From positions 200,621 to 264,620 of the forward strand of contig JABGRK010000010.1 in assembly GCA_018648325.1 (NCBI GenBank): a DNA stretch of 64,000 nucleotides, in the 5' to 3' direction. The notes under the pieces were generated by a model that made no database searches, was not told where the DNA came from, and saw nothing but the letters and a program-made list of their open reading frames with translations. The first letter of the stretch is position 1, and each line of letters starts with the position of its first letter. The position numbers and the translations under genes were made by a program. This DNA comes from Chloroflexota bacterium. GTDB lineage: Bacteria > Chloroflexota > Dehalococcoidia > JABGRK01. Positions 22,791 to 57,507 of the stretch are shown here, in pieces.

Positions 22791-22860
22791 ATCATCGCCA
22801 GGGCCCATGTTTGCCCAAACACGCTAAGAAAAATAATGGAAAAAAGTAGGCATAAAAAAA

Positions 22861-22933
22861 TGGAGCTGAGGGGATTCGAACCCCTGACCTCCTCCGTGCA
22901 AGGGAGGCGCTCTCCCAATTGAGCTACAGCCCC
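22861..22933 (-). tRNA. tRNA-Ala (anticodon UGC)
   Basis: Cloverleaf by eye: GGGGCUGUAGCUCA..., anticodon loop CUUGCAC, G3:U70, discriminator A73. CCA is not encoded. Confidence 0.9.
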
Positions 22934-22989
22934 ATGTCTAAGTTCAATTCTATCAATAATCCGCTGTGTGCGCAATATCATGCGATTCA

Positions 22990-33702: not shown

Positions 33703-33722
33703 TTGGGGTTGTTGGGGGATAG

Positions 33723-36700
33723 ATGAGCTACTTTCTGGGTATTGATATAGGGTCGATCAGCGCCAAGCTGGCTCTTATAGATAAAGACGGCGTGGTTATC
33801 GATCTTGATAGCATAAAAGTAACCACCGGCCCGCGTGATGCGGTGGTTGAGCTTATATCCCGCCTTAAGCAGAAATACGCTCTTGATGATATCACCGCTG
33901 TTGGTGTATCCGGTTCAAGCAAGATGTCCATCCCGGCCCAGCTTAACTGGCTGGAGTGCAGCAGTTCACTGTCTATCGCCTCGGGCGTTCTTAATTACCA
34001 TCCCGATGCCAAGTCGATTATCATGATCGGCGGGCAAAGCTCGATGGTGATTGAACTGGAGGACGGGCTCAACAAGCCATGGAAGGTGGATTCCAATCCG
34101 CTGTGTGCTGCCGGAACAGGTCGTTTCCTCGAGCAGCAGGCTTATCGTCTCGGTATTAACCTAGATGATTTCTCACGTCTGGCGCTGGAAGTTGACGAAG
34201 CCCCTCCCAGAATTGCCGCCAGATGCAGCGTTTTTGCCAAGACCGACCTGATTCACCTGCAGCAAAAAGGCGTGTCGCTGGGCGCCATGCTCTACTCACT
34301 GTGCGACAGCATAGCCCGCATGGTTGCTTCCTTCAAACGAGGGCCTTTTAAGGAACCGGTCTATTTCGTGGGTGGAGTCGCTGCCAATGATGCGATAGTC
34401 CGTTCTGTAAATGAGGTTATCTCTGATCGCAACAAGAGTGAAGTTGCGGTCACCGTTCCTGAAAATTACGTATACATGGAGGCCATTGGTTCGGCGCTGC
34501 TGGCTCGTGATTCGGGCAAGAATTCAATAGTAAGAATGCTGTCGTCTGAAGAGGTCAAACAGAGCTACTATGAGATGCCGCAACTAGACGAAGTTTCTCA
34601 AAGCAATGGCTGGACAGCCGAGCAGATCGAGAAGCCATTTGTCGGTTATCTGGGTATAGACGTTGGGTCCACCAGTACCAAGGCCGTTATAGTTGACCAG
34701 ACGGGCAAGCAGGTCATTTCCAAGAGTTATCTTATGACCGCCGGCCAACCCGTCGATGCTATTAAAGACGTATTTACCAGCCTTCATAGCAGTGTTGGCG
34801 ATAATGCCGAAATTGCCGGTGTAGGTGTTACCGGATCAGGCAGATATCTGGTGGGCAGTTTTGTCGGTGCCGATATTATCAGAAACGAGATTACGGCCCA
34901 AACCAAGGCTGCCGAGAATGTTGACCCCGATGCCGATATCATTGAAATCGGCGGGCAGGATTCCAAGCTGGTCATTAAACGTAACGGTGTTGTGGTCGAT
35001 TATCAAATGAACAAGGCCTGTGCCGCAGGAACCGGCAGCTTCATTGATGAGCTGGCCGAGATGCTGGGTGTATCGGTCACCAGTGGCGAGTTTGCTTCGC
35101 TGGCCTTTAAAGCTGAGCACACTATCGAGCTGGGCACTAAATGCGCAGCATTCATTGGTCAGGCGGTATCACTGGCGCAGCACGAAGCTATTCCTATCGA
35201 GGTCGTTGTTGCCAGCCTGTCCAGATCGGTAGCGCGTAACTATCTTTCCAAGGTAGTGGGTAATAGAAATCTGGGTCAGAAGATAATTCTGACCGGCGCA
35301 GTTTTTTATAACGATGCGGTTGTATCCGCCTTTAAAAAAGAGCTTCCCGATAAAACAATGATTGTTCCCGAGCATAAAGAAGTGACCGGTGCCATTGGCG
35401 CGGCGCTGCTGGCAAAGGAAGAGGTAGAGCAATCGGGCGTCAAGTCCGCCTTCAAAGGATTTGAGCAGGTGATTGGTAGTCAGTATGAGATCAGCACCTT
35501 TACCTGTAAGACCTGTGATAACAACTGCACCATCAGCCGTATGAATATCCCGGACGAGAAGCCTACATTCTATGGCAGCCGCTGCGACCTGTTCGACAGT
35601 AACATCGGGCAGGGTAAAGTAGAAACCCTGTTTGATAAACGTGAGCAGATGCTATTTGCCGATTATGACGAAACTGCCGGTACTGGAATTACCGTTGGTG
35701 TGCCGCGGGCACTTGGCATGTATGATTTTGCTCCGTTGTTCATCAACTTCCTCAACTCGCTTGGCGTAAAGGTCAAAATGTCCAATAAGACCAACCGCGG
35801 CATTGTGGAGCGGGCCATTCAACTCTCATATACCGATAGTTGTCTGCCTATGAAGCTGCTGCACGGGCATGCCGCCAGTATTAAAGATGACGTTGATTAT
35901 ATACTTTTCCCCTCTGCTATAAGAATGGGTGAAAAGGACGGGGATGAAAACCAGAAGTACACCTGCCCGCTGGTGCAGGCATCGCCGTATATCATCAGGC
36001 AGGTTCTGGATATCGGAGACAGGGCGCTGGTGCCCACCATCGATTTCAGCATGGGTGATAAGGATGTAATTAACAACCTTACCGATATCGCCAAAAAACT
36101 GGGCTTTTCCAAAAAAGATGGTAAGAAAGCCGCACTTAAAGGCTTAAAAGCGCATCGCAAATTCCAGGCCGATCAGATCGAGATAGGCCAGAACATGCTG
36201 GCTCAGCTCAGGGAAAGCGGGCAGCTTGGCGTTGTGGTCTATGCCCGGTCGTATCTGTCGCAGGATTCGGGAGCCAATCTGGGTATTGCAGAGAAGCTGG
36301 CACAACTCGGTGTGATGCCCATACCGCTGGATTTCCTGCCGCTGGATTCTATCGATGTCAAGCAGTTCTCCGACAGGCCCTACTGGCATTACGAGAGCAT
36401 GCATATCGCCGGTGCTGCCATAACGCTCAAGGAACCGAAGTTATACGGCATGATGCTCAGCTGTTTTGGTTGCGGACCCAATTCGTTTGTAACCAACATT
36501 GTTGAAGATATAACCGATGGCAAACCTCTGGGCCATCTGGAACTGGATGAACATGCCGCCGAGGCCGGACTGGTGACCAGGCTTGAGGCATTTGTCGATA
36601 CCATAAGCGGGTATCATCGCCATCATAGTGGTGATGAGGTACCCAAGTGGGATGTCGATATACGCCGCGCGCTGCCCAACTCCATATCGGTTAACGACAA

Positions 36701-37889
36701 AACTATCCTGATACCGTGGATGAATCCGCATGCAGAGATGTTGGGTGCAGCCATGCGCGCCTTTGGCGTCAAGGCAAAGGTGCTTCCGGAGCAGGATGAC
36801 CGCAACCTGATGTACGGCAACATGGTTTCATCGGGCAAGGAGTGTCTGCCGTATCGCATAACCATCGGTGATTTCATGAAGTTCTACTACGATAACAACG
36901 GCAATGGTACTGATCTTACCAAGGTTGCCGGTTTCATGCCCAGCGCTTACGGCCCATGCCGCTTTGGCAAGTACGCCGTGGAGCAGATGCGCCAGCTCAG
37001 GGACATCGGGTTTGACCTGCAACTGGAGACCACGGTTTCCAACGCCGGATACCGCGATTTCGGTTTGGGGATCGCCTTTGAACGCCTTTCGTGGAAGGGC
37101 ATCGTGTCAATAGACTATTTACAGAGATTGTTGTGGCGCTCGCGCCCTTATGAATATGACGAGGGCGCAGCAGACGTGCTTTTTGACAAATACAGGGCGC
37201 TTTTGGTTGAATGCATAGAGGCAAGAGGATCGCTGGACGAGGTACTTAGCCAGGCGGTGCAGGAGTTCCGGGAAATAGCAGACCATGATGCGCCCAGAAA
37301 GCCGCTTATCGGTATAAACGGTGAGATATTCCTGCGTACCAACCGCTTTTCAAATTGCGATCTGGAGCGTGAGTGCGAAAAGGCCGGGCTAGAGGTTATC
37401 GTATCACCCATGGGCGAGTGGCTCAATTACGTCACACATCGCTACATCGAAGATGCCGTCAAGTTCCGCAGTGTCAAGAAACTGATACGCGGATATATCA
37501 AAAGACGCATTCAGCGCAAGGATGAAAAATCGGTGGCAGACAATTTCAAGGGTGTTTTTGATCTACACGATCCGTCTATAAAAGAGGTCCTGAGTTATTC
37601 GCGTGCCTTCCTTTCATCCAAGTGCGGTTCTGAGGCTGTATTGTCTATAGGTACCGGCATAGAGTGGATGGAAAATCCGCAGTTCGCCGGTGTTATATCG
37701 GTGATGCCGCATGGCTGTATGCCCGGCGGAATCGTCGCGGCTATGAGCGAGAAGTTCAGTGCGGAGTACGGCAAGCCTTGGGTGAACCTTACGTATGACG
37801 GGTTTATGGAAAACACCAACCAGACAAAGATTCACAATCTGGCCGAGGTACTCAAGTATACCAGCAAGGAACCTGCCAAGATTGCTTAA
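33723..37889 (+). CDS. Fused CoA-substrate-specific enzyme activase (two BadF/BadG/BcrA/BcrD-type ASKHA ATPase domains) + 2-hydroxyacyl-CoA-dehydratase (HgdB/D-component)-like domain; 1388 aa
   Basis: ASKHA motifs are present twice: LGIDIGSISAKLAL and LGIDVGSTSTKAVI, with their downstream GGQSS/GGQDSK stretches. The C-terminal ~600 aa carry the Cys pattern typical of DUF2229/HgdB-like proteins. Confidence 0.8.
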   Translation: MSYFLGIDIGSISAKLALIDKDGVVIDLDSIKVTTGPRDAVVELISRLKQKYALDDITAVGVSGSSKMSIPAQLNWLECSSSLSIASGVLNYHPDAKSIIMIGGQSSMVIELEDGLNKPWKVDSNPLCAAGTGRFLEQQAYRLGINLDDFSRLALEVDEAPPRIAARCSVFAKTDLIHLQQKGVSLGAMLYSLCDSIARMVASFKRGPFKEPVYFVGGVAANDAIVRSVNEVISDRNKSEVAVTVPENYVYMEAIGSALLARDSGKNSIVRMLSSEEVKQSYYEMPQLDEVSQSNGWTAEQIEKPFVGYLGIDVGSTSTKAVIVDQTGKQVISKSYLMTAGQPVDAIKDVFTSLHSSVGDNAEIAGVGVTGSGRYLVGSFVGADIIRNEITAQTKAAENVDPDADIIEIGGQDSKLVIKRNGVVVDYQMNKACAAGTGSFIDELAEMLGVSVTSGEFASLAFKAEHTIELGTKCAAFIGQAVSLAQHEAIPIEVVVASLSRSVARNYLSKVVGNRNLGQKIILTGAVFYNDAVVSAFKKELPDKTMIVPEHKEVTGAIGAALLAKEEVEQSGVKSAFKGFEQVIGSQYEISTFTCKTCDNNCTISRMNIPDEKPTFYGSRCDLFDSNIGQGKVETLFDKREQMLFADYDETAGTGITVGVPRALGMYDFAPLFINFLNSLGVKVKMSNKTNRGIVERAIQLSYTDSCLPMKLLHGHAASIKDDVDYILFPSAIRMGEKDGDENQKYTCPLVQASPYIIRQVLDIGDRALVPTIDFSMGDKDVINNLTDIAKKLGFSKKDGKKAALKGLKAHRKFQADQIEIGQNMLAQLRESGQLGVVVYARSYLSQDSGANLGIAEKLAQLGVMPIPLDFLPLDSIDVKQFSDRPYWHYESMHIAGAAITLKEPKLYGMMLSCFGCGPNSFVTNIVEDITDGKPLGHLELDEHAAEAGLVTRLEAFVDTISGYHRHHSGDEVPKWDVDIRRALPNSISVNDKTILIPWMNPHAEMLGAAMRAFGVKAKVLPEQDDRNLMYGNMVSSGKECLPYRITIGDFMKFYYDNNGNGTDLTKVAGFMPSAYGPCRFGKYAVEQMRQLRDIGFDLQLETTVSNAGYRDFGLGIAFERLSWKGIVSIDYLQRLLWRSRPYEYDEGAADVLFDKYRALLVECIEARGSLDEVLSQAVQEFREIADHDAPRKPLIGINGEIFLRTNRFSNCDLERECEKAGLEVIVSPMGEWLNYVTHRYIEDAVKFRSVKKLIRGYIKRRIQRKDEKSVADNFKGVFDLHDPSIKEVLSYSRAFLSSKCGSEAVLSIGTGIEWMENPQFAGVISVMPHGCMPGGIVAAMSEKFSAEYGKPWVNLTYDGFMENTNQTKIHNLAEVLKYTSKEPAKIA

Positions 37890-37901: not shown

Positions 37902-39122
37902 TTAGTCGAGGTAGGCTTGCAGTGTTTCCCCCACGATTCGCGGCGGTGTCCATTTGTCGGGTGGATGCAGCCGGGGCAGCTTTTCAGGCACCCACTCAGT
38001 AGTTTTTACGCAACGCATTTTAATGGCATTTGGCTCGCACCACAGGGCACATCCGGCGCAACCCCAGCACTTGTCAGCATTTAAAACCGCTACAGTAGTG
38101 CCACCCACATCCTTCATTTCCATGGCCTGCCACGGGCATTTACCGGCACATATCCCGCAGCCGTTGCAAATGTCCACATCTATTTCCGGCTGCCAGCGTG
38201 ATTTCGCCCAGCCCCGGTGCTTCTGAGAAATGTCGTGCTGGTTCATGGCAACCCACAGATGGCAGCAGCAGTCGCAGCAGTAACATAGCGTTGATGCCGG
38301 CATGTCGCGGTTGTTTGTGTACGAGCCTGCTAATCCCTCAACAGACGCTTGCTCCATAATAGCAAGCAGTTCGTCTTTATCTATCCTGCGCCCGATACCC
38401 TTTGACAGCGAATACTCGGCTTCCCTGTCAAACAGCAGGCAGGCGTCCATTTGAGTCCTGTCGCATTTGTTATCGCTGCCTGCAATTTGTACGCGGCAGG
38501 GGCATGGTATTTCCACACACAGCTCGGTAGAAGCGGCGATGGCGCGCTGATCCTCCCAAGGTTCTATTTGATCTCGATCAGGGCTGGCGGTAAGCGCCTT
38601 CCAGGACGGCAGGATACGGCGCTGTGGCGGTTGCTCTTGCTTTGTGGCCCGCAGGCGAGATACACATTGCCACTCGCTCTCCTCGTGTTGTATGAAGTCG
38701 CTCCACAGTTTGGCAAGCTCGGGATAGTCACCCAGATTTGGATTAAGCAGCGTTGATTTGTGCAACTTTCCGGAGGATAACCTATATCTGTACCCTTCGC
38801 CCGTTTTAAAATCGCGCGGGTATATCAATCCCTTTATATGCAGGCTGTCCAGCGTTTTTTTTACCGTATCCACGTTGGCATTAATTGTCGCTGCTATCTG
38901 GTCAGACGGTACTGGCGCCCATATGATTTGCGTGCATACTTTGGCCTCAAGCGGTGTCAGTAGATATTCCAATATGCGACGAAAGCGTATGCTACCGGGG
39001 TAGCCGCTGGCAGCAATGAGGCGGCCGCATTCGTCTTTCTGGGCCAACACCTTCTGCTTCCACCCGGCCTCGGACAGATCCCGCCACTGTGCACTGTTTT
39101 TGTCGTTTGAAATTGCCATCAC
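37902..39122 (-). CDS. Fe-S protein: N-terminal winged-helix-like region, Cys cluster (CYCCDCCCH), and two 4Fe-4S ferredoxin motifs (CNGCGICAGKCP, CWGCAGCALWCEP)
   Basis: 406 aa. Motifs read directly from the translation. Function unknown. Confidence 0.6.
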   Translation of the reverse strand: MMAISNDKNSAQWRDLSEAGWKQKVLAQKDECGRLIAASGYPGSIRFRRILEYLLTPLEAKVCTQIIWAPVPSDQIAATINANVDTVKKTLDSLHIKGLIYPRDFKTGEGYRYRLSSGKLHKSTLLNPNLGDYPELAKLWSDFIQHEESEWQCVSRLRATKQEQPPQRRILPSWKALTASPDRDQIEPWEDQRAIAASTELCVEIPCPCRVQIAGSDNKCDRTQMDACLLFDREAEYSLSKGIGRRIDKDELLAIMEQASVEGLAGSYTNNRDMPASTLCYCCDCCCHLWVAMNQHDISQKHRGWAKSRWQPEIDVDICNGCGICAGKCPWQAMEMKDVGGTTVAVLNADKCWGCAGCALWCEPNAIKMRCVKTTEWVPEKLPRLHPPDKWTPPRIVGETLQAYLD

Positions 39123-42366: not shown

Positions 42367-44139
42367 CTATTTGACGGTGACCGACTTGGCCAGATTACGC
42401 GGTTTGTCCGGGTCTTTGCCCCGCCTTATTGCCAGATAGTAGGCCATTAGTTGCAACGGCAGTACCACTGACAGAGGATAGAATATATCTTCCACCTCAG
42501 GAACCTTGATCCACTCATCATATATCTCGTTATACCTGTCCGAAATACCTATGATAAAGGCACCGCGTGCCTTGGTCTCAATAGCGTTGGATATTGTCTC
42601 ATGGTAGGTCTCATCGTTGGGGCATATAGCCACCACCGGCGTGCCCTCTTCTATCAGTGCTATAGTGCCGTGCTTGAGTTCTCCGGCAGGCATTCCCTCT
42701 GCGTGGATGTATGACAGCTCCTTGAGCTTTAGTGCCCCTTCGGAAGCCATGGCGAAGTTGATACCGCGTGCTATGTAGTAGAAGTTACCCTGATCGTATA
42801 GTTTATCCGCAAGCGTCATCAGGCTCTGGCTGTTCTCGGCAAAGCTGCCATTGATTCCCACCGACAGGCCTTTTAGTTTTTTAACGCCCTGGTCCAGCTT
42901 GTTCATCATGGCAAAGGCCAGCAGGTAGAAGATAACCAGCTGTGAGATAAACGACTTGGTTGCGGCAACGCATATCTCCGGGCCACAGTTCAGGTACAGC
43001 GCCTTGTGACTCATTCTGGCCAGTGACGAACCGGGCACGTTTACTATTGATACAATCTTGGCACCCTTAGCCTTGGCCAGTTTGACCCCTTCCATCACAT
43101 CGAGAGTCTCGCCGCTTTGGGATACCGCTATGACCACCGTATGCTTGTCAATGGAACTGGCGAAGTACTGGAACTCCGAGGCCATCACCACATCGCAGAA
43201 TTTGCTGGCAAGCTGAGAAAACAGGTATCTGCCTATCAATGCGGCGTAACGCGAGGAGCCGCAGGCCGCTATTATTACCTGCTTGGCCCGCAGGATATTC
43301 ATGGCAACATCCATTACGTGTTTCTTGTCCTGTGTGGCTGCACTCTGAATAGCCTCCGGCCCTTCGATGATCTCCTTGAGCATAAAATAATCATGGCCGT
43401 TCTTGCTTGCCTGATCCCACTCCCACTCAACCTTGACCGCTTTTCTCTTGACCTGTTTGCCCTTCTTGTTATATAACATGACGCCATCATCGGTGATGAC
43501 CGCCATCTCGTCGTCCTCCATAAAGATAACCTGATTCGTTTTCTCCAGAAACGAAAGCGCATCGCTGGCAACGAAGTACTCGCCATCGCCAACACCTATT
43601 ACCAGAGGGCTGGACCTCCTGACGGCCACTATCTTGCCGGGATCGTCAACCGAGATGACCGCCATCGCGTATGATCCCTCCAGTTGGCCGAGGGTGGCAG
43701 TAACCGCCTTTTCCAGAGGATCGCCATTTTTCATGTATGATTCAATGAGATGACCTATCACCTCTGTATCTGTCTCAGAAACAAAGTGATGCTCACCTTC
43801 CAGCTGATGGCGCAATTCCTGATAGTTCTCAATAATGCCGTTATGAACTATGGCCAGCTTGCCTTCGCAATCAGTATGAGGATGCGCGTTGGGGACATTT
43901 ACTACGCCGTGTGTAGCCCAGCGTACGTGTCCGATAGCGATGTTGCCGGGCAGTCCGTCCAGTGCGTACTTGCCCTGAACCTCGGCTATCTTGCCCACGT
44001 CTTTTTTGAGCAGTATCTCGTTGTCGTATATAGAAGCAACGCCAGCCGAATCATACCCGCGATATTCAAGACGCGTCAGCGCCCTTAACACAACGGGTGA
44101 GGCTTGCTCCTTACCTATGAATCCTACTATTCCACACAT
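42367..44139 (-). CDS. glmS: Glutamine--fructose-6-phosphate aminotransferase (isomerizing)
   Basis: N-terminal MCGIVG (Ntn Cys). Two SIS domains. C-terminal ...SVTVK. 590 aa. Confidence 0.95.
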   Translation of the reverse strand: MCGIVGFIGKEQASPVVLRALTRLEYRGYDSAGVASIYDNEILLKKDVGKIAEVQGKYALDGLPGNIAIGHVRWATHGVVNVPNAHPHTDCEGKLAIVHNGIIENYQELRHQLEGEHHFVSETDTEVIGHLIESYMKNGDPLEKAVTATLGQLEGSYAMAVISVDDPGKIVAVRRSSPLVIGVGDGEYFVASDALSFLEKTNQVIFMEDDEMAVITDDGVMLYNKKGKQVKRKAVKVEWEWDQASKNGHDYFMLKEIIEGPEAIQSAATQDKKHVMDVAMNILRAKQVIIAACGSSRYAALIGRYLFSQLASKFCDVVMASEFQYFASSIDKHTVVIAVSQSGETLDVMEGVKLAKAKGAKIVSIVNVPGSSLARMSHKALYLNCGPEICVAATKSFISQLVIFYLLAFAMMNKLDQGVKKLKGLSVGINGSFAENSQSLMTLADKLYDQGNFYYIARGINFAMASEGALKLKELSYIHAEGMPAGELKHGTIALIEEGTPVVAICPNDETYHETISNAIETKARGAFIIGISDRYNEIYDEWIKVPEVEDIFYPLSVVLPLQLMAYYLAIRRGKDPDKPRNLAKSVTVK

Positions 44140-44170
44140 GCTATATGCCTATTAATAATCGTTTATTGCT

Positions 44171-44209
44171 TCGTGTTGGGAGTATACCAGAAAGATATAG
44201 TTTTGGCAA
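44171..44209 (-). promoter_or_regulatory. Candidate sigma70 promoter for glmS (TTGCCA-17-TATACT on the minus strand)
   Basis: Found by reverse-complementing the AT-rich intergenic region. Confidence 0.35.
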
Positions 44210-44363
44210 TAGTTGTTGTTATGTCGAGTTATTGAAAGGCGTGTAATATTGGGCCTTGTTTTTGGATGCAGTGCAGGGCTTGACAATATACTGCTTGACA
44301 GGCAATAGTGTTTGAAAAAGAATTGGCAATTGATCTGAATCATATCGAAATTGAGGTTCTAGC

Positions 44364-46040
44364 ATGTATGATCCCAGCCAAAACGAGGTTATACAGGTCC
44401 TGGTGGAAGAGCTGGAGAGAATCGGTGGTGCGGCTGCTCCTCATGACGTGATCGTAAAAATGGGTCAGCGTTTTGGGCTTCCAATAGATGAAAGCAACAT
44501 AACTACCGATCCTGCAAACAAGTTATTTCGGCACAAGGTTTACTGTGCCGCATCTATAGCACGTACCAAACGTGGGTTGCTTGAGCCTGCCTCCAGGAGC
44601 GGCAGGGGGCACTGGATGCTTAATCCCGCATACAAGCAGCAGATGGGTAAAGCGAGTGTTGATCAGGATCATATCCCTCCGCCCGTTATGGAGATTCAAA
44701 AGCCGGTAGTCCAGGCCTCTGAGCCAAAGACAGACCAGCTACCTGTCGTATCGTCGCTGCCGGAGACTAGACCTTCTTTGGAATTAACATCTGATCATAA
44801 TATATTAGCAGCGCAGACCTCTGATCCAGAGATAGAACGGCTACCTGCCGTATCGTCGCTGCCGGAGACTAGACCTTCTTTGGAATTAACATCTGATCTG
44901 AGTGCACTGGTAACAGAAGCACAAGAGCCGAAGACAGCACCACTGCGTGATATCCCATTTCAGCACGTGCCCAAGCCCCCCAGAAGATTCACATCTGATT
45001 TGAGTATGGACGTATGGGTTGTTTTAACAGTCGGAGCAATTGCTACTCTTTTTGTCATTGCGGGTGCTTTTAGCAGTGCCGTTTCATCAGGTGATCTGCT
45101 GTTGGGCTATCCGGCCTGGGATTGGGTAAGGCTTGGCGCTATGGCTTATCTGGCATGTCTGGTTATTCTGTTGCACGCTGTGGCCAGAAGACGTGCCGGA
45201 AGCAGTCCCAAAGCGCTTCTAATTATCTGGGGTGCGAGATTGGCTGGAATTGTGGCCACTATATTCATCGTGCTGGGGCTGATAAGTGATAGACTTCTTG
45301 ATTACTCGGGCCAGAGCTGGATACAAATGGGGTCTGTAGCATTCCTGATTTGTGCCGTTGCCCTGGTTTACATTATCGTACCCAAGGACAAGTTGGATTA
45401 TGGCCGGTCGCTGTGGCGCAATGAGATGTGGGCTGCTATTGGGCTTGCAGTTGTTTCCAGCATCCTTATTTTTGTAGGGGTTTTGGAGGGGATTTTGGGA
45501 TCGGCAGAGGTGGTGCTGGGATATACGGCACTTACCTGGATAAAAATAGGAGCGCTGGGTTATCTGGTTTGTACCATTGTGTTGCTTCATTCCATTGTAA
45601 GACAGGATGAGGAGAGTTCTGTTGGTAGCATTGTAATACTTTTGGCCCGAATCGTTTTTATGCTTTCCACCGTTGTGGCGTCCGTGGGGATCATAGGTGG
45701 GCTGGTGGCTGATCCGGTGGCGTACCGGGTGTTTGGTTATCCGGTGCTGGATTGGATTGAACTGGGTGCGGTGGGCTACTTCATGTCTATAGCGTTGTTG
45801 CTTTACAGCGTGGCGCAGCGGTATACCAATATGTCGCTTGGGATTTTAAGCATATGGGTTGCCAGAGGTTTTGGTGTTTTGGCAACCGGTCTGGTTTTGG
45901 TGGGACTTACGGGATGGCTCACAACCGATGCCGATTCTTTTTTGGGATACGACAGTTGGGGCTGGATACACCTTGGTGTGGTGCTGTACCTGGTTTTTGC
46001 CATTACCTCGATATACGGGATGACTGAGAAAAAGAGCTGA
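44364..46040 (+). CDS. Mrr-N-like winged-helix N-domain + Pro/Glu-rich linker with a perfect 19-aa repeat + 5 tandem ~60-aa two-helix membrane repeats
   Basis: N-terminus (IQVLVEELERIGGAAAPHDVIVKMGQRFGL...W.L) matches the Mrr_N pattern. The repeats LGYPAWDWVRLGAMAYLACLVILLHAV, LGYTALTWIKIGALGYLVCTIVLLHSI, FGYPVLDWIELGAVGYFMSIALLLYSV and LGYDSWGWIHLGVVLYLVFAI are visible by eye. Confidence 0.6.
   Translation: MYDPSQNEVIQVLVEELERIGGAAAPHDVIVKMGQRFGLPIDESNITTDPANKLFRHKVYCAASIARTKRGLLEPASRSGRGHWMLNPAYKQQMGKASVDQDHIPPPVMEIQKPVVQASEPKTDQLPVVSSLPETRPSLELTSDHNILAAQTSDPEIERLPAVSSLPETRPSLELTSDLSALVTEAQEPKTAPLRDIPFQHVPKPPRRFTSDLSMDVWVVLTVGAIATLFVIAGAFSSAVSSGDLLLGYPAWDWVRLGAMAYLACLVILLHAVARRRAGSSPKALLIIWGARLAGIVATIFIVLGLISDRLLDYSGQSWIQMGSVAFLICAVALVYIIVPKDKLDYGRSLWRNEMWAAIGLAVVSSILIFVGVLEGILGSAEVVLGYTALTWIKIGALGYLVCTIVLLHSIVRQDEESSVGSIVILLARIVFMLSTVVASVGIIGGLVADPVAYRVFGYPVLDWIELGAVGYFMSIALLLYSVAQRYTNMSLGILSIWVARGFGVLATGLVLVGLTGWLTTDADSFLGYDSWGWIHLGVVLYLVFAITSIYGMTEKKS
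44739..44898 (+). repeat. Two copies of a 58-nt direct repeat (1 mismatch) 102 nt apart inside the 44364 gene, encoding LP(V/A)VSSLPETRPSLELTSD
   Basis: Copy 1 is CTACCTGTCGTATCGTCGCTGCCGGAGACTAGACCTTCTTTGGAATTAACATCTGATC (44739..44796). The same unit with one T-to-C change recurs at 44841..44898. Confidence 0.85.
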
Positions 46041-46080: not shown

Positions 46081-46914
46081 TTACTCTGTGGCCGTAGCCT
46101 TTCTTTTTCTCCTACTTCGTAGTTTGGTAGTTCCCAGGTATGCAAACAATACCGCGCCGCTCAGCAGTATAATCGTTGCCCCCGACGGGACGTCCAGTAT
46201 ATAGGACAGCCACAGTCCGGCGTATGTAAACAGTATGCCGAAAAGCGTGGCAAGCCCCATCATCTTTTTAAGATCATAAGTAAACTGTCGTGCCAGCGTG
46301 GCTGGTATGGTCAGCAAGGCTATTACCAGAATTATACCCACCACCTTGATCAGTACTACTATGGTCAGGGCAATAAGGCACAGCAGCAGCAGATGCAGCA
46401 CTTTTACCGGAACGCCTGCTATGGCACTGAACTCCCTGTCGAATGACATGGACAGAAATTCTTTGAACAGCGCCAGTACGGCAATAATTATCACGGCATC
46501 CAGAATTATCATCAGTATCAGGTCGGCAGATTTCACCGTAAGTATGTTGCCGAAAAGATAGCTGAAAAGGTCCGGCGTATATCCCGGTGCCAGCCCGATA
46601 AAGATAGTGCCTACCGCCATTCCCATGGCCCACAATATACCGATGGTGGTGTCCTCGGTCAGTTTTGTTCTTTGAGTGATAACGCCGATGCCCAGCGCTG
46701 AGGCTACGGCAAATATCATGGCTCCAATTACAGGGTTTATGCCGATCAGGTACCCCAGTCCTACTCCGCCGAATGATGTGTGGGCGATACCACCGCTGAT
46801 GAAAACCACCCTTTTTGATACAACGTAAGTTCCCACAATACCGCAGGCTATAGCCGCCAGCAGCCCGGCGGCAAGCGCGTTTTGCATAAATTCAAATCTT
46901 AGTACTTCAAACAT
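46081..46914 (-). CDS. znuB: Zinc/manganese ABC transporter permease (ABC-3 family)
   Basis: 277 aa, 8 TM, ABC-3 pattern. Confidence 0.85.
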   Translation of the reverse strand: MFEVLRFEFMQNALAAGLLAAIACGIVGTYVVSKRVVFISGGIAHTSFGGVGLGYLIGINPVIGAMIFAVASALGIGVITQRTKLTEDTTIGILWAMGMAVGTIFIGLAPGYTPDLFSYLFGNILTVKSADLILMIILDAVIIIAVLALFKEFLSMSFDREFSAIAGVPVKVLHLLLLCLIALTIVVLIKVVGIILVIALLTIPATLARQFTYDLKKMMGLATLFGILFTYAGLWLSYILDVPSGATIILLSGAVLFAYLGTTKLRSRRKRKATATE

Positions 46915-49701: not shown

Positions 49702-51726
49702 ATGGCGTCAGTTTTATCAAAACTGAAATCGGCTCCTATAATATTTAACAAATCCGAACCTATGATGAAGGTGCGGGTGGTTACCCCCAAAGACGATACT
49801 GAGAAGGCGCTAAAAGCGTTGCATGAGATCGGCGCGCTGGATATTCAGGAAGAAAGCGCATCCGAAGCAGATGTAACTGCTATCGAGCTTGAAAGAGACC
49901 AGATTCGTGAGTCCCTGCGGCGTGTGGAAAGCATGCTGGCATATGTGAAAGAAAAAGAAACAGTTGCTCTGACCAAAGACGTCGGTGAAATGTATCAGAG
50001 GCCGCTTGCTTCTACTCACAGCGATATTGATCTGGTTCATAGCAAGATTGCCCGTATAGTTGAGAAGGCCGGGATCCTGCGTGAAGAGCTGTCCAACCTA
50101 CAGGAATTTAAAAAATATCTTGCTCCGCTGGCAGCAGAACTGAGTGTCGGATTAGATGACCTTGCCTACTCGGGCGGGTATCTTTATACAAACCTTTACG
50201 TTTTCGTGCTGGGAGTATCTGATACATTTATCGATCAGACGGGCGACCTGCTTTTTGACAACGTGGCTGTCTCTGTTGATGAAGAAGTGGTTGTTTACGT
50301 CGTTGCCAGAGCAACGGACGGTAAGGCAGTTAATTCCATAGCTGAGGGTTTGGGTGCCAAATCGCTGTCTTTGCCTTGTGACGCGCAGTCTATGGACAGT
50401 TATTTAACCGGACTTGATACAAAGATACCCCAGCTTGAAAAAGAGATAGAAGATCTTACCGAGGAAATCCTTAGCAACGCTAAGGAGAACCTTGAGGCAA
50501 TCGTCCTGCTTCAGTCAGTACTGACCGCAGAGGACGAACGTTTGGCATTTCTGTCAAATGCCTATAGTGCAAAGTATGTAACTGTAGTTGAGGGCTGGAC
50601 TGCCGAAAACGATGTCGAAGCTGTGACATCCCAGATGCAGGGAGCGGTGGATACTGCATACGTTGAGGCAAGAAAACCGTCTAAAACCGATGAACCTCCC
50701 TCAAAACTTAAAAACGTTAAGGGTGTAAAACCCTTTGAAGTTATCGTAAACCTGTTTTCAGTACCCAAGTATGGCGGTTGGGATCCCACGCCCATAGTGG
50801 CCTATTTCTTTGCCGCATTCTTCGGCCTTATGTTTGCTGATGTAGTATATGGCGTAATGCTGTTGCTTTCCGCTAAGTTCCTGTTGCATAAACTTGTTGA
50901 TGATCCCACAACAGACGGTTTTAAACTGTTCCGCAAGGTGCTTTATACCGGCGGTACTGTGGGCCTGATTTTAGGTTTGCTTGCCGGTAATTACTTGGGT
51001 GATTTTTATCACAGACCGCTTGGACTGCTTACAGATGCTCAAATTGATGCAGGCCAATCATTTGCACTTATTGATAGTGTTAGACACTGGTTAGGCAAGC
51101 CCATTAACTTCCTGGAGCTTTCGCTGTGGATGGGTTTGTTTCATGTAAATATCGCTCATGCCATAGGCCTTAAGATGGCAATCACACAGCGCAACAAGGC
51201 TGTAATTATCAGTAAAATAGCATTATTTACTATGCAAATAGCACTTATACCTATCATTACTTCCAGTATTCTGGGAAGCGGCAGATTGCCTGCACCGCCC
51301 GATTGGTTTATCTATATGGGGCTTATATCCATCATCGCTATCATCTCCGCGGCGATTATGGAGCGGGGTGGTTTCGGGGCCATCTTCTGGTTGTTTGATG
51401 TTACCGGGATAATAGGCGACACCATGTCATATGCCAGGCTTGCCGGCGTGGGGCTGGCAGGTTTCTATCTGGCCTCGGCTTTCAATCAGGTAGCAGTACT
51501 TATGCCGGAATTGCTGGGCGTTGTTTTGGGCACTATCGTAATGGTTCCAATCCTTATTGGAGCCCATTTAATTAACCTGTTTTTGGGTGTACTATCAGGC
51601 TTCGTTCACTCGTTGCGCTTGTGCTTCGTTGAGTTCCTTATGAAGTTCTATGATGGCGGAGGCAGGGAGTATGAAGCGTTTAAACTTAAAAAACCAAAAA
51701 GTGTAATTATTGGTGAAAAAACTTAA
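49702..51726 (+). CDS. atpI: V/A-type ATP synthase subunit I (a-subunit)
   Basis: 674 aa. Soluble N-terminal half followed by about 8 TM C-terminal helices with a conserved Arg region. Confidence 0.85.
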   Translation: MASVLSKLKSAPIIFNKSEPMMKVRVVTPKDDTEKALKALHEIGALDIQEESASEADVTAIELERDQIRESLRRVESMLAYVKEKETVALTKDVGEMYQRPLASTHSDIDLVHSKIARIVEKAGILREELSNLQEFKKYLAPLAAELSVGLDDLAYSGGYLYTNLYVFVLGVSDTFIDQTGDLLFDNVAVSVDEEVVVYVVARATDGKAVNSIAEGLGAKSLSLPCDAQSMDSYLTGLDTKIPQLEKEIEDLTEEILSNAKENLEAIVLLQSVLTAEDERLAFLSNAYSAKYVTVVEGWTAENDVEAVTSQMQGAVDTAYVEARKPSKTDEPPSKLKNVKGVKPFEVIVNLFSVPKYGGWDPTPIVAYFFAAFFGLMFADVVYGVMLLLSAKFLLHKLVDDPTTDGFKLFRKVLYTGGTVGLILGLLAGNYLGDFYHRPLGLLTDAQIDAGQSFALIDSVRHWLGKPINFLELSLWMGLFHVNIAHAIGLKMAITQRNKAVIISKIALFTMQIALIPIITSSILGSGRLPAPPDWFIYMGLISIIAIISAAIMERGGFGAIFWLFDVTGIIGDTMSYARLAGVGLAGFYLASAFNQVAVLMPELLGVVLGTIVMVPILIGAHLINLFLGVLSGFVHSLRLCFVEFLMKFYDGGGREYEAFKLKKPKSVIIGEKT

Positions 51727-51745
51727 AAAAGGGGGAGTTGCATAA

Positions 51746-52255
51746 ATGGAAGAATTACTAACTAATTTAATTTCGCCACAATCCTTAGCAGTTCTCGGTG
51801 GAGCTATTGCTCTTGCCGGTGGACTGGCTGGATCGTCAATTGGTATTGCCACAGCTGCAAGCGCTGGGGCGGCCACTTTGTCGGAAGATCCCAAACAATT
51901 CCGTAATGTGCTGCTGCTGTCCGCTCTGCCGATGACGCAGACGTTCTATGGGCTGATTATCCTGATTCTGTTCATAACGCTGGCCATACCCAATATGGGT
52001 AATTTCCTGCCGGATACAGCCAATGGCCTGGGTGCAGGATTTGCAATGCTGGCATGCGGCATCATCGGTGGTGTTGCACAGTTCGTATCCGCTATATACC
52101 AGGGGCAGGTATGTGCTTCTGCCATATCGCTGCTGCCTAAAACCAAGGGCAAAATTCTTACAAACGGCATGATGCTTGCTGTATTTGTTGAGCTGTTTGG
52201 TATTCTGGGTCTGGTAGGAACGATCATCGCACTAGTCCTAAGTGGACTGATGTAG
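51746..52255 (+). CDS. atpK: V/A-type ATP synthase proteolipid subunit K (c), duplicated double-hairpin form
   Basis: 169 aa, 4 TM, Gly/Ala-rich helices. Confidence 0.85.
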   Translation: MEELLTNLISPQSLAVLGGAIALAGGLAGSSIGIATAASAGAATLSEDPKQFRNVLLLSALPMTQTFYGLIILILFITLAIPNMGNFLPDTANGLGAGFAMLACGIIGGVAQFVSAIYQGQVCASAISLLPKTKGKILTNGMMLAVFVELFGILGLVGTIIALVLSGLM

Positions 52256-52264
52256 GAGAGTCTT

Positions 52265-52855
52265 ATGACTGGAATGGATAAAATCAGCGGGGCTATCCTG
52301 GATAAGGTCAAGGCTGAGGCAACAGGCATTATTAGTGATGCCCAGGCCAAAGCCAGGGAAGTCATAGCTGAAGCCGAAAAAACAAAGATTGCCAAGGCTG
52401 AGGTCGCAAAGAATAAACTGCTGGACGTGGCCAAAGCCGAAGCCGGCAGAATTCTGGCTCAATCCTCTATCAAGTCACGGCAGCAGTTGCTGACTGCCAA
52501 AGCCGATATCATTGAGGAAACCACCGAGAAGGTAAGAAAAGCGGTGGCGGCAGGTAAAAGCAGCGACAAAGGTATGACAAAACTGATTGTGGAAGCCTTA
52601 TCAGGGCTTAATACCAAGGATGCCATACTGTATGTCAAAGCCGGTGATGTGGAATTGGCCAAAAAAGTGGTTGCGGCAGACAAAAAGCTGGCCGACAGGG
52701 TGACCAAGGTCGAAAAGATCGAGTGCACCGGCGGCGTGATTGCCGAGGACACCATAGGTAAAACCAGGATAGATAATACTTATGACACAAGGCAGGATAT
52801 ACTTCTGCCCAAGCTTATGCCAGAGGTAAGCAAAGAACTGTTTGAAAACATCTAG
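52265..52855 (+). CDS. atpE: V/A-type ATP synthase subunit E
   Basis: 196 aa. Ala/Lys/Glu-rich N-terminal helix and a C-terminal globular part. Confidence 0.8.
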   Translation: MTGMDKISGAILDKVKAEATGIISDAQAKAREVIAEAEKTKIAKAEVAKNKLLDVAKAEAGRILAQSSIKSRQQLLTAKADIIEETTEKVRKAVAAGKSSDKGMTKLIVEALSGLNTKDAILYVKAGDVELAKKVVAADKKLADRVTKVEKIECTGGVIAEDTIGKTRIDNTYDTRQDILLPKLMPEVSKELFENI

Positions 52856-52865
52856 GAGCTGACTG

Positions 52866-53921
52866 TTGTTAAGTGCTGGATATGCATTTTTAGCGGCGTA
52901 CCTGAAGGGCGAAGAGTCCAAGATGGTGAGCGCCGAACATATGGACGCTATTTTCCGGAACTCTAAGGTTCAGGACGCACTGGTATCCATCAAGGATACG
53001 GATATGGGCGGGTATTTCGAAGAAGTATCTCCCAGCGCTCTTGCTACCTTCGATGACGTAGACCTGCATCTGTGGCTTTATCTTGGTAAATGCCTGGACC
53101 AGTTCAAGTGGTTCAGCATCGTACCTAAAGAGGTAAGGCAGGTGGTCGCCGCGCATGTTGTGAAATATGATGTATCCAACGTCAAAGTCGCACTGCGTGG
53201 ACTGGATACCGAGGAGAAGGTTCGCATGATACCGGTCGGTGTTATTCATAATGCCGAGATGCTAGAGTCATTGTCCGGTGCCGAGACTGTGGACGATATA
53301 ATACAGGTTCTTGTGCAGTCCAACCTGAGTCCTTATGCCGCTATCCTTAAGGAAAGCGAAGAGGCGCTCACGCAGAGTTCAAAACAACGTCTGGCAGTTG
53401 AGGCAGAGCTTGATAAGCAGTACTACGCAGATGTCCTTGCGTCTGCCAAAAAGATGAAGGACGGCAAGCAGTTCCTTACTATACAGGGAGTGGTTACCGA
53501 CTACATAAACCTGCAGGTAATATTCAGGGCTGTAATCAACGGCATAGGTCCTGAGGCGTCCGGCTATCTCATTGCCGGTGGCAGTGACCTGAGTGCCGAA
53601 ATAATGGCTGATCTGCTAAATACCAAGTTTGGTGACCTGCTGGGTAAACTTGAGTCAACCAGATACAAAGAGGTTGCTGAGGAGCTGACCGTCAACTACG
53701 ACAGGACTCATAGTATAACTGTGGTTGACGAGGTTATCGAAATGCACAAGTTCACCTACATCAGGGAGATGGTATCTACCAAAATCCTGTCTCCGTTGCT
53801 CATGTCCTGGTATCTGGTGCTAAAAGAGCTTGAAGTCAGAAATGTAAGATTGATTCTTAAAGCCATAAGCGACGATGTTCCCTATGAGAAGATAAAAGAT
53901 TATTTGGTGCTGAGCTCATGA
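52866..53921 (+). CDS. atpC: V/A-type ATP synthase subunit C (d/AC39)
   Basis: 351 aa. Conserved operon position and size. Start codon uncertain. Confidence 0.75.
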   Translation: MLSAGYAFLAAYLKGEESKMVSAEHMDAIFRNSKVQDALVSIKDTDMGGYFEEVSPSALATFDDVDLHLWLYLGKCLDQFKWFSIVPKEVRQVVAAHVVKYDVSNVKVALRGLDTEEKVRMIPVGVIHNAEMLESLSGAETVDDIIQVLVQSNLSPYAAILKESEEALTQSSKQRLAVEAELDKQYYADVLASAKKMKDGKQFLTIQGVVTDYINLQVIFRAVINGIGPEASGYLIAGGSDLSAEIMADLLNTKFGDLLGKLESTRYKEVAEELTVNYDRTHSITVVDEVIEMHKFTYIREMVSTKILSPLLMSWYLVLKELEVRNVRLILKAISDDVPYEKIKDYLVLSS

Positions 53922-54271
53922 CAGATTTAAAGAACTTAGACGTAACAGTAATAGGAAACCGGGAGCTGGTTACCGGCCTTAGGCTGGCCGGGATGAGCAA
54001 ATTCTATCTGATCGATGGCGAACACGACATCGCCGGGCAGGTAAAAAAGGCTCTTGATGAACTGCTGGAAGATAAGTTAACCGGGATAATAATCCTGCAG
54101 GAAGACTATGTCCAGTATGTAGAAGATACGGTAAACAGGATTCGGGGATCAAGAGAACCGATACCTGTAATTATAGAGGTCCCTTCTAAATACGGTACAA
54201 AGTACCCCGATGTAAAAGCTTATTATAAGGCTTACATCAGGAAATTTATTGGATTTGACGTAGAGTTATAA
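53918..54271 (+). CDS. atpF: V/A-type ATP synthase subunit F
   Basis: 117 aa. Overlaps the upstream gene by 4 nt. Confidence 0.8.
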   Translation: MTDLKNLDVTVIGNRELVTGLRLAGMSKFYLIDGEHDIAGQVKKALDELLEDKLTGIIILQEDYVQYVEDTVNRIRGSREPIPVIIEVPSKYGTKYPDVKAYYKAYIRKFIGFDVEL

Positions 54272-54302
54272 GGTTACATCCATCATATTCGGAGGATGAA
54301 GT

Positions 54303-56042
54303 ATGGGCAAAATATGGAGGGTTTCAGGTCCTTTAGTAGTAGCTGAAGGCATGAGAGGTTCCAAGGTTTATGAGGTCGTTCAGGTAGGCGACGAAGGGCT
54401 TATCGGCGAGGTTATCGGCCTTGACGGTGATCAGGCTGTGATACAAACCCATGAGGAAACTCAGGGGTTAAAGATCGGTGAGAACGTGACCCCAACAGGT
54501 CGAATTCTCACGGTTGATCTGGGTCCCGGCCTTATCGGGTCTATCTATGACGGACTTCAAAAATCTCTGCTTACCCTGATCGAGAACTCGGGCCATTTCA
54601 TTAAGCGTGGTGCCACATCAGAGGCACTTTCGCCCAGTGCGAAATGGGATTTCCAGCCGGTGCTTAAAGTTGGAGATAGAGTTCAGGGTGGAGATATTAT
54701 CGGTGTGGTTCCGGAAACAGAACTGGTGGCACACAAGATAATGGTCCCGCCGGATATGGGCGGCGTGATAACAGAGCTCAATAAAGGCGCATATACTATT
54801 GAGGATATGATCTGCCGCCTGGAAAACAATGGCGACAAAACGGATCTCACCTTAATGCAGAAGTGGCCGGTAAGAAAACCAAGGCCTTACAGGTCCAGAC
54901 GTGACCCAACCGACCTGCTGGTTACCGGTATGCGCATTATCGACTATATGTTCCCGCTGTCGCTGGGTGGTAAAGCCGGAATCCCGGGTGGATTCGGCAC
55001 AGGCAAAACCGTTACACTGCAGCAGTTGGCCAGATATGCACAAACGCATCTTAATATCTATGTTGGTTGCGGCGAGCGCGGCAACGAGATGGCCGATGTA
55101 CTGTACAGTTTCCAGGATCTTACCGATCCTCTTACCGGCAGACCCCTTAAAGAGAAAGAGATTTTCATAGCCAATACTTCCAACATGCCTGTGGTGGCCC
55201 GTGAAGTAAGTATCTTCGTTGGTATTACCATCGGTGAGTACTTCAGGGATATGGGCTACGACGTTCTGCTTGTTGCCGATTCAACGTCCAGATGGGCCGA
55301 GGCAATGAGAGAGCTTGGCGGAAGACTTGAAGAAATGCCCGGTGAGGAAGGATTCCCGGCGTATATGGGTTCCAGACTCTCGGCTTTCTATGAAAGAGCC
55401 GGTAGAGTGGAAACAGTGGGCAGCCCGGACAGAGTGGGCTCGCTTACGGCCATGGGTGCTGTGAGCCCTCCAGGTGCTGACTTCTCAGAGCCGGTTACAC
55501 AGACCACGCTTAGAATCATTGAGGCGCTTTATTCGCTGGATGTCTCGCTTGCCAACAAGCGTCACTTTCCGGCAATCAGCTGGCTTAGCAGCTACAGCCT
55601 GTACGTCGGTTCCACCAAGGAGTGGTGGGACAAGATAGACACGGCGTGGGAAGACACCCGTAACTCCGCTATGAGAATCCTGCAGAAGGAAGCAGAGCTG
55701 GAAGAGATCGTAAGGCTGGTTGGTCCCGAGGCTATGCCTGAGGCCGATAAATTGCTGCTGCTCTCTGCCAAGATGCTGCGTGAGGATTTCCTTATGCAGA
55801 ATGCATATCATCACATCGACACATACTGTGCTCCCAAGAGAGCGCACCTTATGATGAAAACGATGATGCGCTTCTATGAACTGTCTCAGGGGATGATGGA
55901 ATCAGGAATGACGGTTGCCGAAATCAGGCAGTCGCCCATGATAACCAAGATATCCCGTATGAAAGATATTGAAAACGACGTTTTCGAAGATAAAGTCAAG
56001 GAACTTTGGGCTGAAATGGAATCCGGGTTGGTTGCCCGATAG
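54303..56042 (+). CDS. atpA: V/A-type ATP synthase catalytic subunit A
   Basis: 579 aa. P-loop GGFGTGKTV. Non-homologous insert region typical of A subunits. Confidence 0.95.
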   Translation: MGKIWRVSGPLVVAEGMRGSKVYEVVQVGDEGLIGEVIGLDGDQAVIQTHEETQGLKIGENVTPTGRILTVDLGPGLIGSIYDGLQKSLLTLIENSGHFIKRGATSEALSPSAKWDFQPVLKVGDRVQGGDIIGVVPETELVAHKIMVPPDMGGVITELNKGAYTIEDMICRLENNGDKTDLTLMQKWPVRKPRPYRSRRDPTDLLVTGMRIIDYMFPLSLGGKAGIPGGFGTGKTVTLQQLARYAQTHLNIYVGCGERGNEMADVLYSFQDLTDPLTGRPLKEKEIFIANTSNMPVVAREVSIFVGITIGEYFRDMGYDVLLVADSTSRWAEAMRELGGRLEEMPGEEGFPAYMGSRLSAFYERAGRVETVGSPDRVGSLTAMGAVSPPGADFSEPVTQTTLRIIEALYSLDVSLANKRHFPAISWLSSYSLYVGSTKEWWDKIDTAWEDTRNSAMRILQKEAELEEIVRLVGPEAMPEADKLLLLSAKMLREDFLMQNAYHHIDTYCAPKRAHLMMKTMMRFYELSQGMMESGMTVAEIRQSPMITKISRMKDIENDVFEDKVKELWAEMESGLVAR

Positions 56043-56053
56043 GAGGAGTCTAA

Positions 56054-57448: not shown

Positions 57449-57507
57449 TTTTAGCGCAGGATTCATCCTGCCGGGCTTTGGGGGGCGATCCCCTTTAAGG
57501 AAGATAT

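Follow-up and report, generated by a model that had tools for sequence, protein, structure and literature searches.

A Mrr_N-type winged-helix head on a repetitive tether and ten predicted membrane helices, encoded in a single population of an uncultured Chloroflexota bacterium

The gene described here lies at positions 44364..46040 (+) of a 64,000-nucleotide stretch of DNA (hereafter the window) from a Chloroflexota bacterium (GTDB lineage Bacteria; Chloroflexota; Dehalococcoidia; JABGRK01), which corresponds to positions 200,621 to 264,620 of contig JABGRK010000010.1 in assembly GCA_018648325.1. It is a complete coding sequence with an ATG start, 558 amino acids (aa) and a stop codon, and its limits are exactly those given in an earlier note made from the DNA letters. 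The product has three parts: an N-terminal head (aa 1–99), a tether (aa ~100–214) and a membrane body (aa 216–558) with ten predicted transmembrane (TM) helices. On the sequence comparisons reported below, this combination of head and body in a membrane-tethered winged-helix protein appears to be unprecedented, and the gene appears to be restricted to one near-clonal population of an uncultured bacterium. We tentatively read the product as a lineage-specific membrane-anchored DNA-binding protein with the logic of transmembrane one-component regulators (TTRs) of the ToxR, CadC and BcrR kind, a reading that we regard as possible rather than probable. In structural terms, the modelled protein has the make-up by which TTRs are defined, with a winged-helix head, ten TM helices and a predicted cytoplasmic N-terminus (N-in).

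By homology and by fold, the head (44364..44660, +) belongs to the Mrr N-terminal winged-helix superfamily as a divergent yet true member, although it misses the Pfam threshold. The earlier note had recognized an Mrr_N pattern in this region, and that assignment holds at the level of relationship and structure but not at the level of the curated model: Pfam and NCBIfam scans of the head and of the whole protein gave no Mrr_N match even at E<=10. The failure to score as Mrr_N, which the earlier note named among the refuting outcomes, is thus real for the Pfam model and is contradicted by homology and fold. A phmmer search of 1.84 billion representative proteins returned five matches to aa 3–140 (E 2.7e-13 to 2e-5, 34–40% identity), all of which match Pfam Mrr_N (PF14338), three with 35–39.7 bits and two with 24–28.5 bits, the latter below the gathering score of 29.5 bits. 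Among the five there is one complete restriction enzyme with both Mrr_N and Mrr_cat, namely P0004 (261 aa). A profile search from these relatives recovered 48 proteins, 45 of which had previously been annotated as PF14338. Further, hhalign placed columns 1–90 of the family profile on residues 1–86 of EcoKMrr of E. coli K-12 (probability 86.5%, E 4.6e-6) in an alignment that is collinear from residue 1, and direct BLASTP against EcoKMrr gave 26% identity (E 0.013). The head retains all seven family-invariant residues (L17, I30, F37, F55, R67, W84 and L86), and the placement of the start codon agrees with the family alignment at residue 1. Sequence searches of the PDB with the head alone and with the 48-sequence profile returned nothing.

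The fold of the head was modelled by AlphaFold2 (AF2) with the family alignment, at a predicted local distance difference test score (pLDDT) of 91–97, as a helix, a strand, a helix, a long helix and a beta hairpin. The helices span residues 6–19 and 26–36, the recognition helix of this winged helix-turn-helix (wHTH) spans residues 50–68, and the wing (80–86) carries the conserved SGRGxW. For this part of the protein, the only sensible PDB matches from Foldseek were to DNA-binding winged helices, namely the E2F-DP chain 1cf7_B (TMt 0.71) and forkhead Fkh1; other winged-helix matches include Stn1 and MukE, whose winged helices we take to be protein-interaction domains. The head is basic, with an isoelectric point (pI) of 8.9. 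Mrr-N appears in the literature as a winged helix for which DNA binding is "presumed", and this holds for Mrr itself as well (PMC3874153). By Pfam, the catalytic domain Mrr_cat is absent from the 558-aa protein, whose C-terminal 344 aa form ten TM helices, and on this ground it cannot be counted among the Mrr restriction enzymes.

The earlier note considered a DNA-binding-like head on a repeat membrane body to be atypical, and the relatives of the head bear this out, as none of about 50 carries a polytopic membrane tail. The closest are small stand-alone Mrr_N proteins of 94–174 aa from uncultured bacteria, with 29–43% identity to the head and with genes that mostly lie between ilvC and leuA. 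Where tails occur, they include a coiled coil (P0005, P0007, P0010), an alpha/beta domain of ~80 aa (P0006, P0009, P0015, P0040), a Cys-rich CxxC...CxxC segment (P0017), a Pro-rich segment with a coiled coil (P0003) and the Mrr_cat domain of P0004. A gene that matches PaREP1 (PF05942) follows the head gene in contig L095, and P0052 itself matches PaREP1. Such swapped tails on the same head are what a reusable DNA-binding module would lead one to expect.

Gene neighbourhoods of these relatives are dominated by amino-acid biosynthesis. In six of the seven relatives with readable flanks, the head gene lies directly 3' of ilvC, within a cluster of the order ilvD-ilvB-ilvN-ilvC-X-leuA-leuCD-leuB in which X is the head gene; leuA comes next wherever the contig continues (L082, L083, L097). 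The six, all on independent metagenomic or metagenome-assembled genome (MAG) contigs, are located at L082:6001-6396, L083:5348-5845, L085:6001-6372, L092:4001-4393, L094:4001-4504 and L097:2131-2916. They are on the same strand as the cluster, and some lie 2 nt from leuA. The slot in L097 holds the complete Mrr_N + Mrr_cat enzyme P0004, and the other five hold head-only genes of 123–167 aa. The operon for branched-chain amino acids here has a restriction-enzyme gene, or a nuclease-less remnant of one, fixed within it. The only defence-type context among the head-family loci read is in L091, where a head-only gene (102–410; P0020, 102 aa) precedes a HicB-like gene and the full set of genes for a type I restriction-modification (R-M) system (hsdM, hsdS, hsdR). 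The neighbours of an eighth relative, P0003, carry no family annotation. Because most of the relatives that could be read sit in the ilv/leu cluster, this lineage reuses the head outside classical defence islands.

The body consists of five homologous modules of 65–71 aa with two hydrophobic helices each and ~27% pairwise identity, delimited by repeat alignment and AF2 and all on the forward strand: module 1 (aa 216–284, TM1 and TM2, 45009..45215), module 2 (aa 285–354, TM3 and TM4, 45216..45425), module 3 (aa 355–422, TM5 and TM6, 45426..45629), module 4 (aa 423–493, TM7 and TM8, 45630..45842) and module 5 (aa 494–558, TM9 and TM10, 45843..46037). The five tandem two-helix membrane repeats proposed in the earlier note are thereby supported by module alignment, by shuffling and by the ten helices of the AF2 model. 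The modules share the motif LGYxxxxW(I)xLGAxxYL, with invariant G/Y/W/G, which covers the outer loop together with the first part of the second helix. In Smith-Waterman comparisons, module pairs scored 9–22 standard deviations above composition-preserving shuffles, and none of 300 shuffles reached the observed score for any pair; these z-scores are generous, because shuffling also breaks the block pattern of hydrophobicity. The modules are dissimilar to one another at the DNA level, and because that likeness has been lost, the five-fold duplication is old, unlike the homogenized repeat core of the linker. Since the modules are only ~27% identical yet keep the invariant G/Y/W/G, long-term selection on the protein is implied. 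Within the region coding for TM5, an 11–12-nt tandem repeat (TTTTGGAGGGGA x2.5) is found at 45470-45498, and contig L090 has a scaffold gap that stops immediately before it.

AF2 runs of the full-length protein and of the TM region alone both gave ten long helices. Their packing is of low confidence, with a predicted template-modelling score (pTM) of 0.38 for the full-length protein and 0.40 for the TM-only run. Foldseek searches with these models returned for the body only a designed repeat protein, 14-3-3 and TRPV1 at TM-scores <=0.3, which are not meaningful, and a structure search of BFVD returned nothing. Because the packing is of low confidence and the Foldseek matches, to soluble helical repeats, do not exceed 0.3, no fold is assigned to the body. 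The topology is predicted from charge. A tally of lysine and arginine (K/R) over loops and helix ends gave ~18 on the predicted cytoplasmic side, namely in the flank before the first helix, the loops between modules and the C-terminus, as against 4 in the outer loops, which are those within the modules. This distribution predicts that head, tether and C-terminus are cytoplasmic (N-in), and the protein has no signal peptide. The outer loops are only 5–12 residues long, and the body is therefore almost wholly embedded in the membrane; few of its membrane-embedded residues are polar.

No relative of the body was found in any of the collections searched. With phmmer, the same 1.84e9 representatives yielded only a fragment of the same protein, which is a scaffold-gap artefact; the apparent 153-aa "homologue" P0002 is the same gene cut by a scaffold gap. 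A five-module profile found no homologue among 5.8e9 clusters, and a word-indexed search with the full protein returned only a 524-aa allele, which is discussed below. Scans for orthologues in GTDB genomes, JGI metagenome contigs and IMG/VR found none, and tblastn against plasmids and phages gave no match. Similarly, when the window and 93 fetched loci were translated in all six frames, hidden Markov models (HMMs) of the module and the head detected no paralogue. No family could be assigned from Pfam, NCBIfam, PADLOC or PHROGs, whether the protein was scanned as a whole or in parts. The best matches to curated membrane families were HRG (E 0.77) and PaaA (E 0.11), both far below cut-offs. In PHROGs, the whole protein and the head matched nothing, and the TM body alone gave an insignificant match to phrog_31078 (E 0.028). 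Membership of a known transporter family, which the earlier note had raised as an alternative, thus found no counterpart in a Pfam or NCBIfam family, in a homologue or in a fold match. In addition, the best GTDB relatives of GlmS, the product of the neighbouring gene (Dehalococcoidia/Chloroflexota, 55–61% identity), have no such gene beside glmS. This suggests, as a weak assignment from a single marker, that the host is a bacterium that these genomes do not represent; that it is a bacterium agrees with its cobalamin riboswitch, Fur, Pat and ZnuABC.

Head and body are joined by a putative cytoplasmic disordered tether (aa ~100–215, 44661..45008, +), as judged from AF2 and composition: pLDDT is below 50 over aa 101–213, and aa 96–214 are acidic (pI 4.8) with 15% Pro and 19% Ser+Thr. 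Repeat analysis divides the tether into three in-frame units of 34 aa (102 nt) on the forward strand: unit 1 (QASEPKTDQLPVVSSLPETRPSLELTSDHNILAA, 44712..44813), unit 2 (QTSDPEIERLPAVSSLPETRPSLELTSDLSALVT, 44814..44915) and unit 3 (EAQEPKTAPLRDIPFQHVPKPPRRFTSDLSMDVW, 44916..45017), which runs into TM1. Unit 3 is much more diverged, though it keeps the EPKT and TSDLS ends, and DNA coding for the TSD motif recurs at 102-nt spacing through the linker. The earlier note described a perfect 58-nt repeat here (44739–44796 and 44841–44898). The repeat is real and in frame; these two segments are identical at 57 of 58 positions, with a single mismatch (T 44746 / C 44848), and form part of a longer similarity of 85 nt at 92% identity (44712-44796 / 44814-44898, 102-nt period) with a perfect core of 50 nt (44747..44796 and 44849..44898, both +). 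An exact repeat of 50 nt inside 1.7 kb is far beyond chance. All seven differences between units 1 and 2 in the 85-nt stretch alter the amino acid, a count that is not significant alone. The unit-1 sequence 5' of the core includes GACCAGCTACCTGT, the unit-2 sequence 3' of the core includes GATCTGAGTGCACTG, and the three-unit form has the junction HNILAA-QTSDPEIER.

The exact 558-aa protein occurs on 14 contigs from several independent projects. The four of these contigs that could be read are 99.98–100% identical to the window over 5.5–7.7 kb, and all four carry three units. One further protein, P0001 (524 aa), is 100% identical to the 558-aa protein save for exactly 34 absent residues. It is encoded on a 3.6-kb contig, L001, which shows only two further single-nucleotide polymorphisms (SNPs) relative to the window (43229 and 46808), both absent from the other assemblies. 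The 524-aa allele is composed of the 5' part of unit 1, the 50-nt core and the 3' part of unit 2, so that 102 nt are missing, and it remains in frame with 34 codons fewer. The sequence evidence indicates that this allele is a contraction, by recombination or slippage in the core, or an assembler collapse, and not an expansion. The three-unit form is the commoner (14 contigs) and by sequence logic would be the ancestral one. The recent in-frame expansion suggested in the earlier note is thus not upheld: such a history is implausible because it would need a 102-nt duplication and ~20 substitutions, as against two in the surrounding 3.5 kb. Length variation, also proposed there, is borne out to the extent that precisely one 34-aa unit is missing from a single near-identical contig; phase variation is not, because a 102-nt unit keeps the reading frame and an on/off phase switch is thereby excluded. 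Repeat number was not found to shift the frame or the promoter spacing, as in a contingency locus.

Whether the short allele reflects a biological polymorphism depends on how its contig was assembled. A collapse of the 102-nt repeat during assembly is quite possible, if somewhat short of probable. The allele is found in a single short-read (k141-type) contig, L001 (ERZ27237574), as against 14 three-unit contigs (with samples ERZ27246207 and JGI 3300004111 and 3300025602 among them), and its junction falls within the 50-nt perfect core, both of which favour collapse. However, the two private SNPs of L001 argue for an origin in a distinguishable strain, and the assembler would normally be expected to resolve a repeat of 50 nt, since this is less than the final k-mer.

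Upstream of the gene, a Shine-Dalgarno-like GAGGT is read in the sequence at 44353..44357 (+), 6 nt 5' of the ATG. Two overlapping sigma-70-like promoter candidates, which are matches to the consensus only, lie at 44280..44323 (+) and read TTGACA-18-AATAGT and TTGACA-17-AAGAAT; both are built on a direct repeat of GCTTGACA with 15-nt spacing (44278, 44293). The gene is flanked by the divergent glmS (42367-44139, -) and the convergent znuB (46081-46914, -), and the 224-bp region between glmS and the 558-aa open reading frame (ORF) serves both, divergently. An inverted repeat of 11 nt (10/11 complementary) covers both divergent start codons (44133-44143 / 44360-44370), and both genes open with TAGCATGT(G/A)TG; the inverted repeat may be a coincidence of start context or a shared element. 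Direct repeats are also present between 44194 and 44330, namely GGCAATAGTnnTTG at 44205 and 44301 and TTGGCAAT at 44203 and 44323. Together with GCTTGACA, these could be operator candidates, or chance. A glmS ribozyme or another known RNA in the intergenic region was considered and rejected, as an Rfam scan returned only two tRNAs and a cobalamin riboswitch elsewhere.

The gene is native to its surroundings. Its GC content (0.50), its GC content at third codon positions (GC3) and its codon use resemble those of its neighbours, at the low end of their range; recently acquired foreign DNA is ruled out by the native GC content and codon use. Likewise, an assembly chimera is ruled out, since the same fusion of head and body is found on 15 independent contigs. 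The neighbourhood is one of housekeeping genes, including glmS, znuABC-fur, a V/A-ATPase operon, Pat and envelope glycan genes, and the window further contains a PAS histidine kinase, ABC-2 transporter genes and tetratricopeptide repeat (TPR) proteins. No restriction, methyltransferase or other defence genes were found within its 64 kb, and no partition, segregation or division genes were found near the ORF.

A membrane-tethered regulator, which the earlier note had mentioned among its suggestions, remains the best inference from these data. TTRs are widespread; their DNA-binding domains are of >100 kinds, and their TM regions number up to 22 (PMC10269533). In the TTR reading, the head would bind DNA in the cytoplasm, as is presumed for Mrr_N, and the flexible tether of ~115 aa would let it reach the nucleoid from the membrane, with each 34-aa unit contributing ~10–12 nm of contour length. 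The body would anchor the protein and would sense a cue from within the membrane or the envelope, or else a partner protein, and it would in this way modulate DNA binding by the head and hence transcription. The divergent glmS, which serves amino-sugar supply for the envelope, would be the nearest candidate target. The 50-nt core may permit occasional deletion of one unit, by which the length of the tether would change while the frame is kept.

Several points weigh against this reading. Pfam's Mrr_N model fails to score the head, Mrr_N is missing from the lists of DNA-binding domains in the TTR census (PMC10269533), and in its founding context Mrr_N serves a nuclease and not a regulator. No sensor domain can be recognised in the TM body, whose three-dimensional model is of low confidence (pTM 0.38–0.40), the small repeats in the glmS intergenic region are weak, and no orthologues in other species were found in the collections searched. 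DNA binding, an operator and a regulon are all putative.

Among the rival explanations, a role in defence was suggested in the earlier note. The Mrr head would sense modified or foreign DNA near the membrane, at the site of phage DNA entry, and the ten-helix part would be an effector that depolarizes or permeabilizes the cell in the manner of abortive infection. The head has its homologue in the domain that serves a type IV restriction enzyme as sensor, P0004 matches the PADLOC models of type IV methyl-directed restriction endonucleases, one head relative adjoins a type I R-M system, and the orphan, fast-evolving character of the protein fits conflict genes; swaps of a nuclease for a membrane effector are known in defence systems. 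The surroundings of the gene do not agree with such a role, however. The neighbours are housekeeping genes, PADLOC, PHROGs, phages and plasmids gave no match to the protein, and the locus, with its native GC content and codon use, is invariant across 14 contigs with no variable island. Moreover, most close relatives of the head are in a biosynthetic operon and not in defence islands, and the ten-helix repeated body is unlike the short oligomerizing TM effectors typical of such systems. We therefore consider a defence device decidedly unlikely, and the more specific version, in which a membrane-resident sensor kills or arrests the infected cell and the repeat-variable tether sets the distance from the membrane at which DNA is sampled, is to be doubted to the same degree.

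The remaining alternatives keep parts of the architecture and assign it other work. A structural link between the membrane and the chromosome or another replicon, without control of transcription, would account for a head of DNA-binding type that is joined by a long flexible tether to a large anchor, and for the want of a recognisable sensor domain; it is nevertheless unlikely, as no partition, segregation or division gene is nearby, no sequence-specific site is known, and ten helices with a motif conserved in each module exceed the needs of an anchor. A novel transporter or channel, with the winged helix as a regulatory or protein-binding domain, is suggested by ten TM helices derived from internal repeats with Gly-rich packing motifs, which are typical of transporters, and by the capacity of winged helices to mediate protein contacts, some of the PDB matches (Stn1, MukE) being from protein complexes. 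We find it improbable given the odd number of repeats (five hairpins) without an inverted-repeat architecture, the few embedded polar residues, and the failure to match either a Pfam or NCBIfam transporter family or a homologue in 1.84e9 representatives. Finally, the gene could be a young and possibly functionless fusion, in which a duplicated Mrr_N head gene was joined to a lineage-specific hydrophobic ORF and has since drifted. Its occurrence in one near-clonal population, its codon adaptation at the low end of its neighbours and the seven of seven amino acid-altering differences between units 1 and 2 are compatible with drift, but the 558-codon frame is intact in all copies, the seven invariant head residues are kept, and a promoter-like site and a Shine-Dalgarno-like sequence are present. 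Such a fusion is very unlikely.

If the head does bind DNA from the membrane, the transmembrane one-component regulators would gain both a DNA-binding family new to them (Mrr_N) and a membrane body of an entirely new kind. The two alleles, distinguished solely by one 34-aa unit of the tether, form a natural pair that could serve to probe the effect of tether length on nucleoid access. The head family as a whole illustrates how the sensor head of a restriction enzyme is reused as a portable module within one bacterial lineage, with nuclease, coiled-coil, alpha/beta, Cys-rich and ten-TM tails. The practical weight of these points is limited, as the protein is an orphan of one uncultured population.

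Several other features of the window deserve mention. A cobalamin riboswitch (10361-10500, -, 54 bits) lies upstream of a BtuF/BtuC/BtuD-like importer of the ATP-binding cassette (ABC) type, whose genes match Peripla_BP_2 (9294-10244), FecCD (8196-9242) and ABC_tran (7396-8199), all on the reverse strand. An IS1-like DDE transposase ORF (274 aa, weak Pfam match) at 22860-23830 (-) is ~70 nt from tRNA-Ala(TGC), and the element may be an insertion at a tRNA. A 325-aa protein with an N-terminal DUF1648 is encoded at 25585-26562 (+); DUF1648 occurs in SdpI-type membrane proteins, which sequester a winged-helix repressor. The 1382-aa ORF at 28758-32906 (+) is an unusual three-way fusion of a major facilitator superfamily (MFS) domain, a spermidine/spermine synthase and C-terminal TPR. 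At 33076-37889 (+), a gene for a TetR-family regulator precedes that for an ATPase of the BcrAD/BadFG type (1388 aa), which contains DUF2229 and is a double 'CoA enzyme activase' of the HgdC/BcrA type; the gene for a 4Fe-4S protein lies on the other strand at 37902-39122. The V/A-type ATPase operon is complete (49702-58140, +), with subunits I, K/c, E, C, A, B and D.

In comparison with known systems, the 558-aa protein resembles the TTRs (ToxR, CadC, TcpP, BcrR) in that a single polypeptide joins an N-terminal (w)HTH, predicted to be cytoplasmic, through a linker to a membrane region, and differs from them in its Mrr_N head, its orphan five-hairpin body and its unusually long repetitive tether. 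BcrR, with an N-terminal HTH, four TM helices and no large outer domain, is the nearest architectural analogue. EcoKMrr and other type IV restriction endonucleases of the Mrr type (Mrr_N PF14338 + Mrr_cat PF04471) have a homologous N-terminal winged helix of ~90 aa; in the 558-aa protein, a 115-aa repeat tether and ten TM helices stand in place of the nuclease, and there is no defence context. The small Mrr_N proteins of the ilvC-leuA slot share the seven invariant residues with the head, and differ in being soluble and short-tailed, in their ilv/leu operon and in having no polytopic body. In FtsK/SpoIIIE, too, a single chain carries a polytopic membrane anchor and a winged helix that reads DNA (the gamma domain), along with a long, variable, low-complexity linker rich in Pro; from these the 558-aa protein differs in its reversed domain order, in having no motor ATPase and in bearing no sequence relationship.

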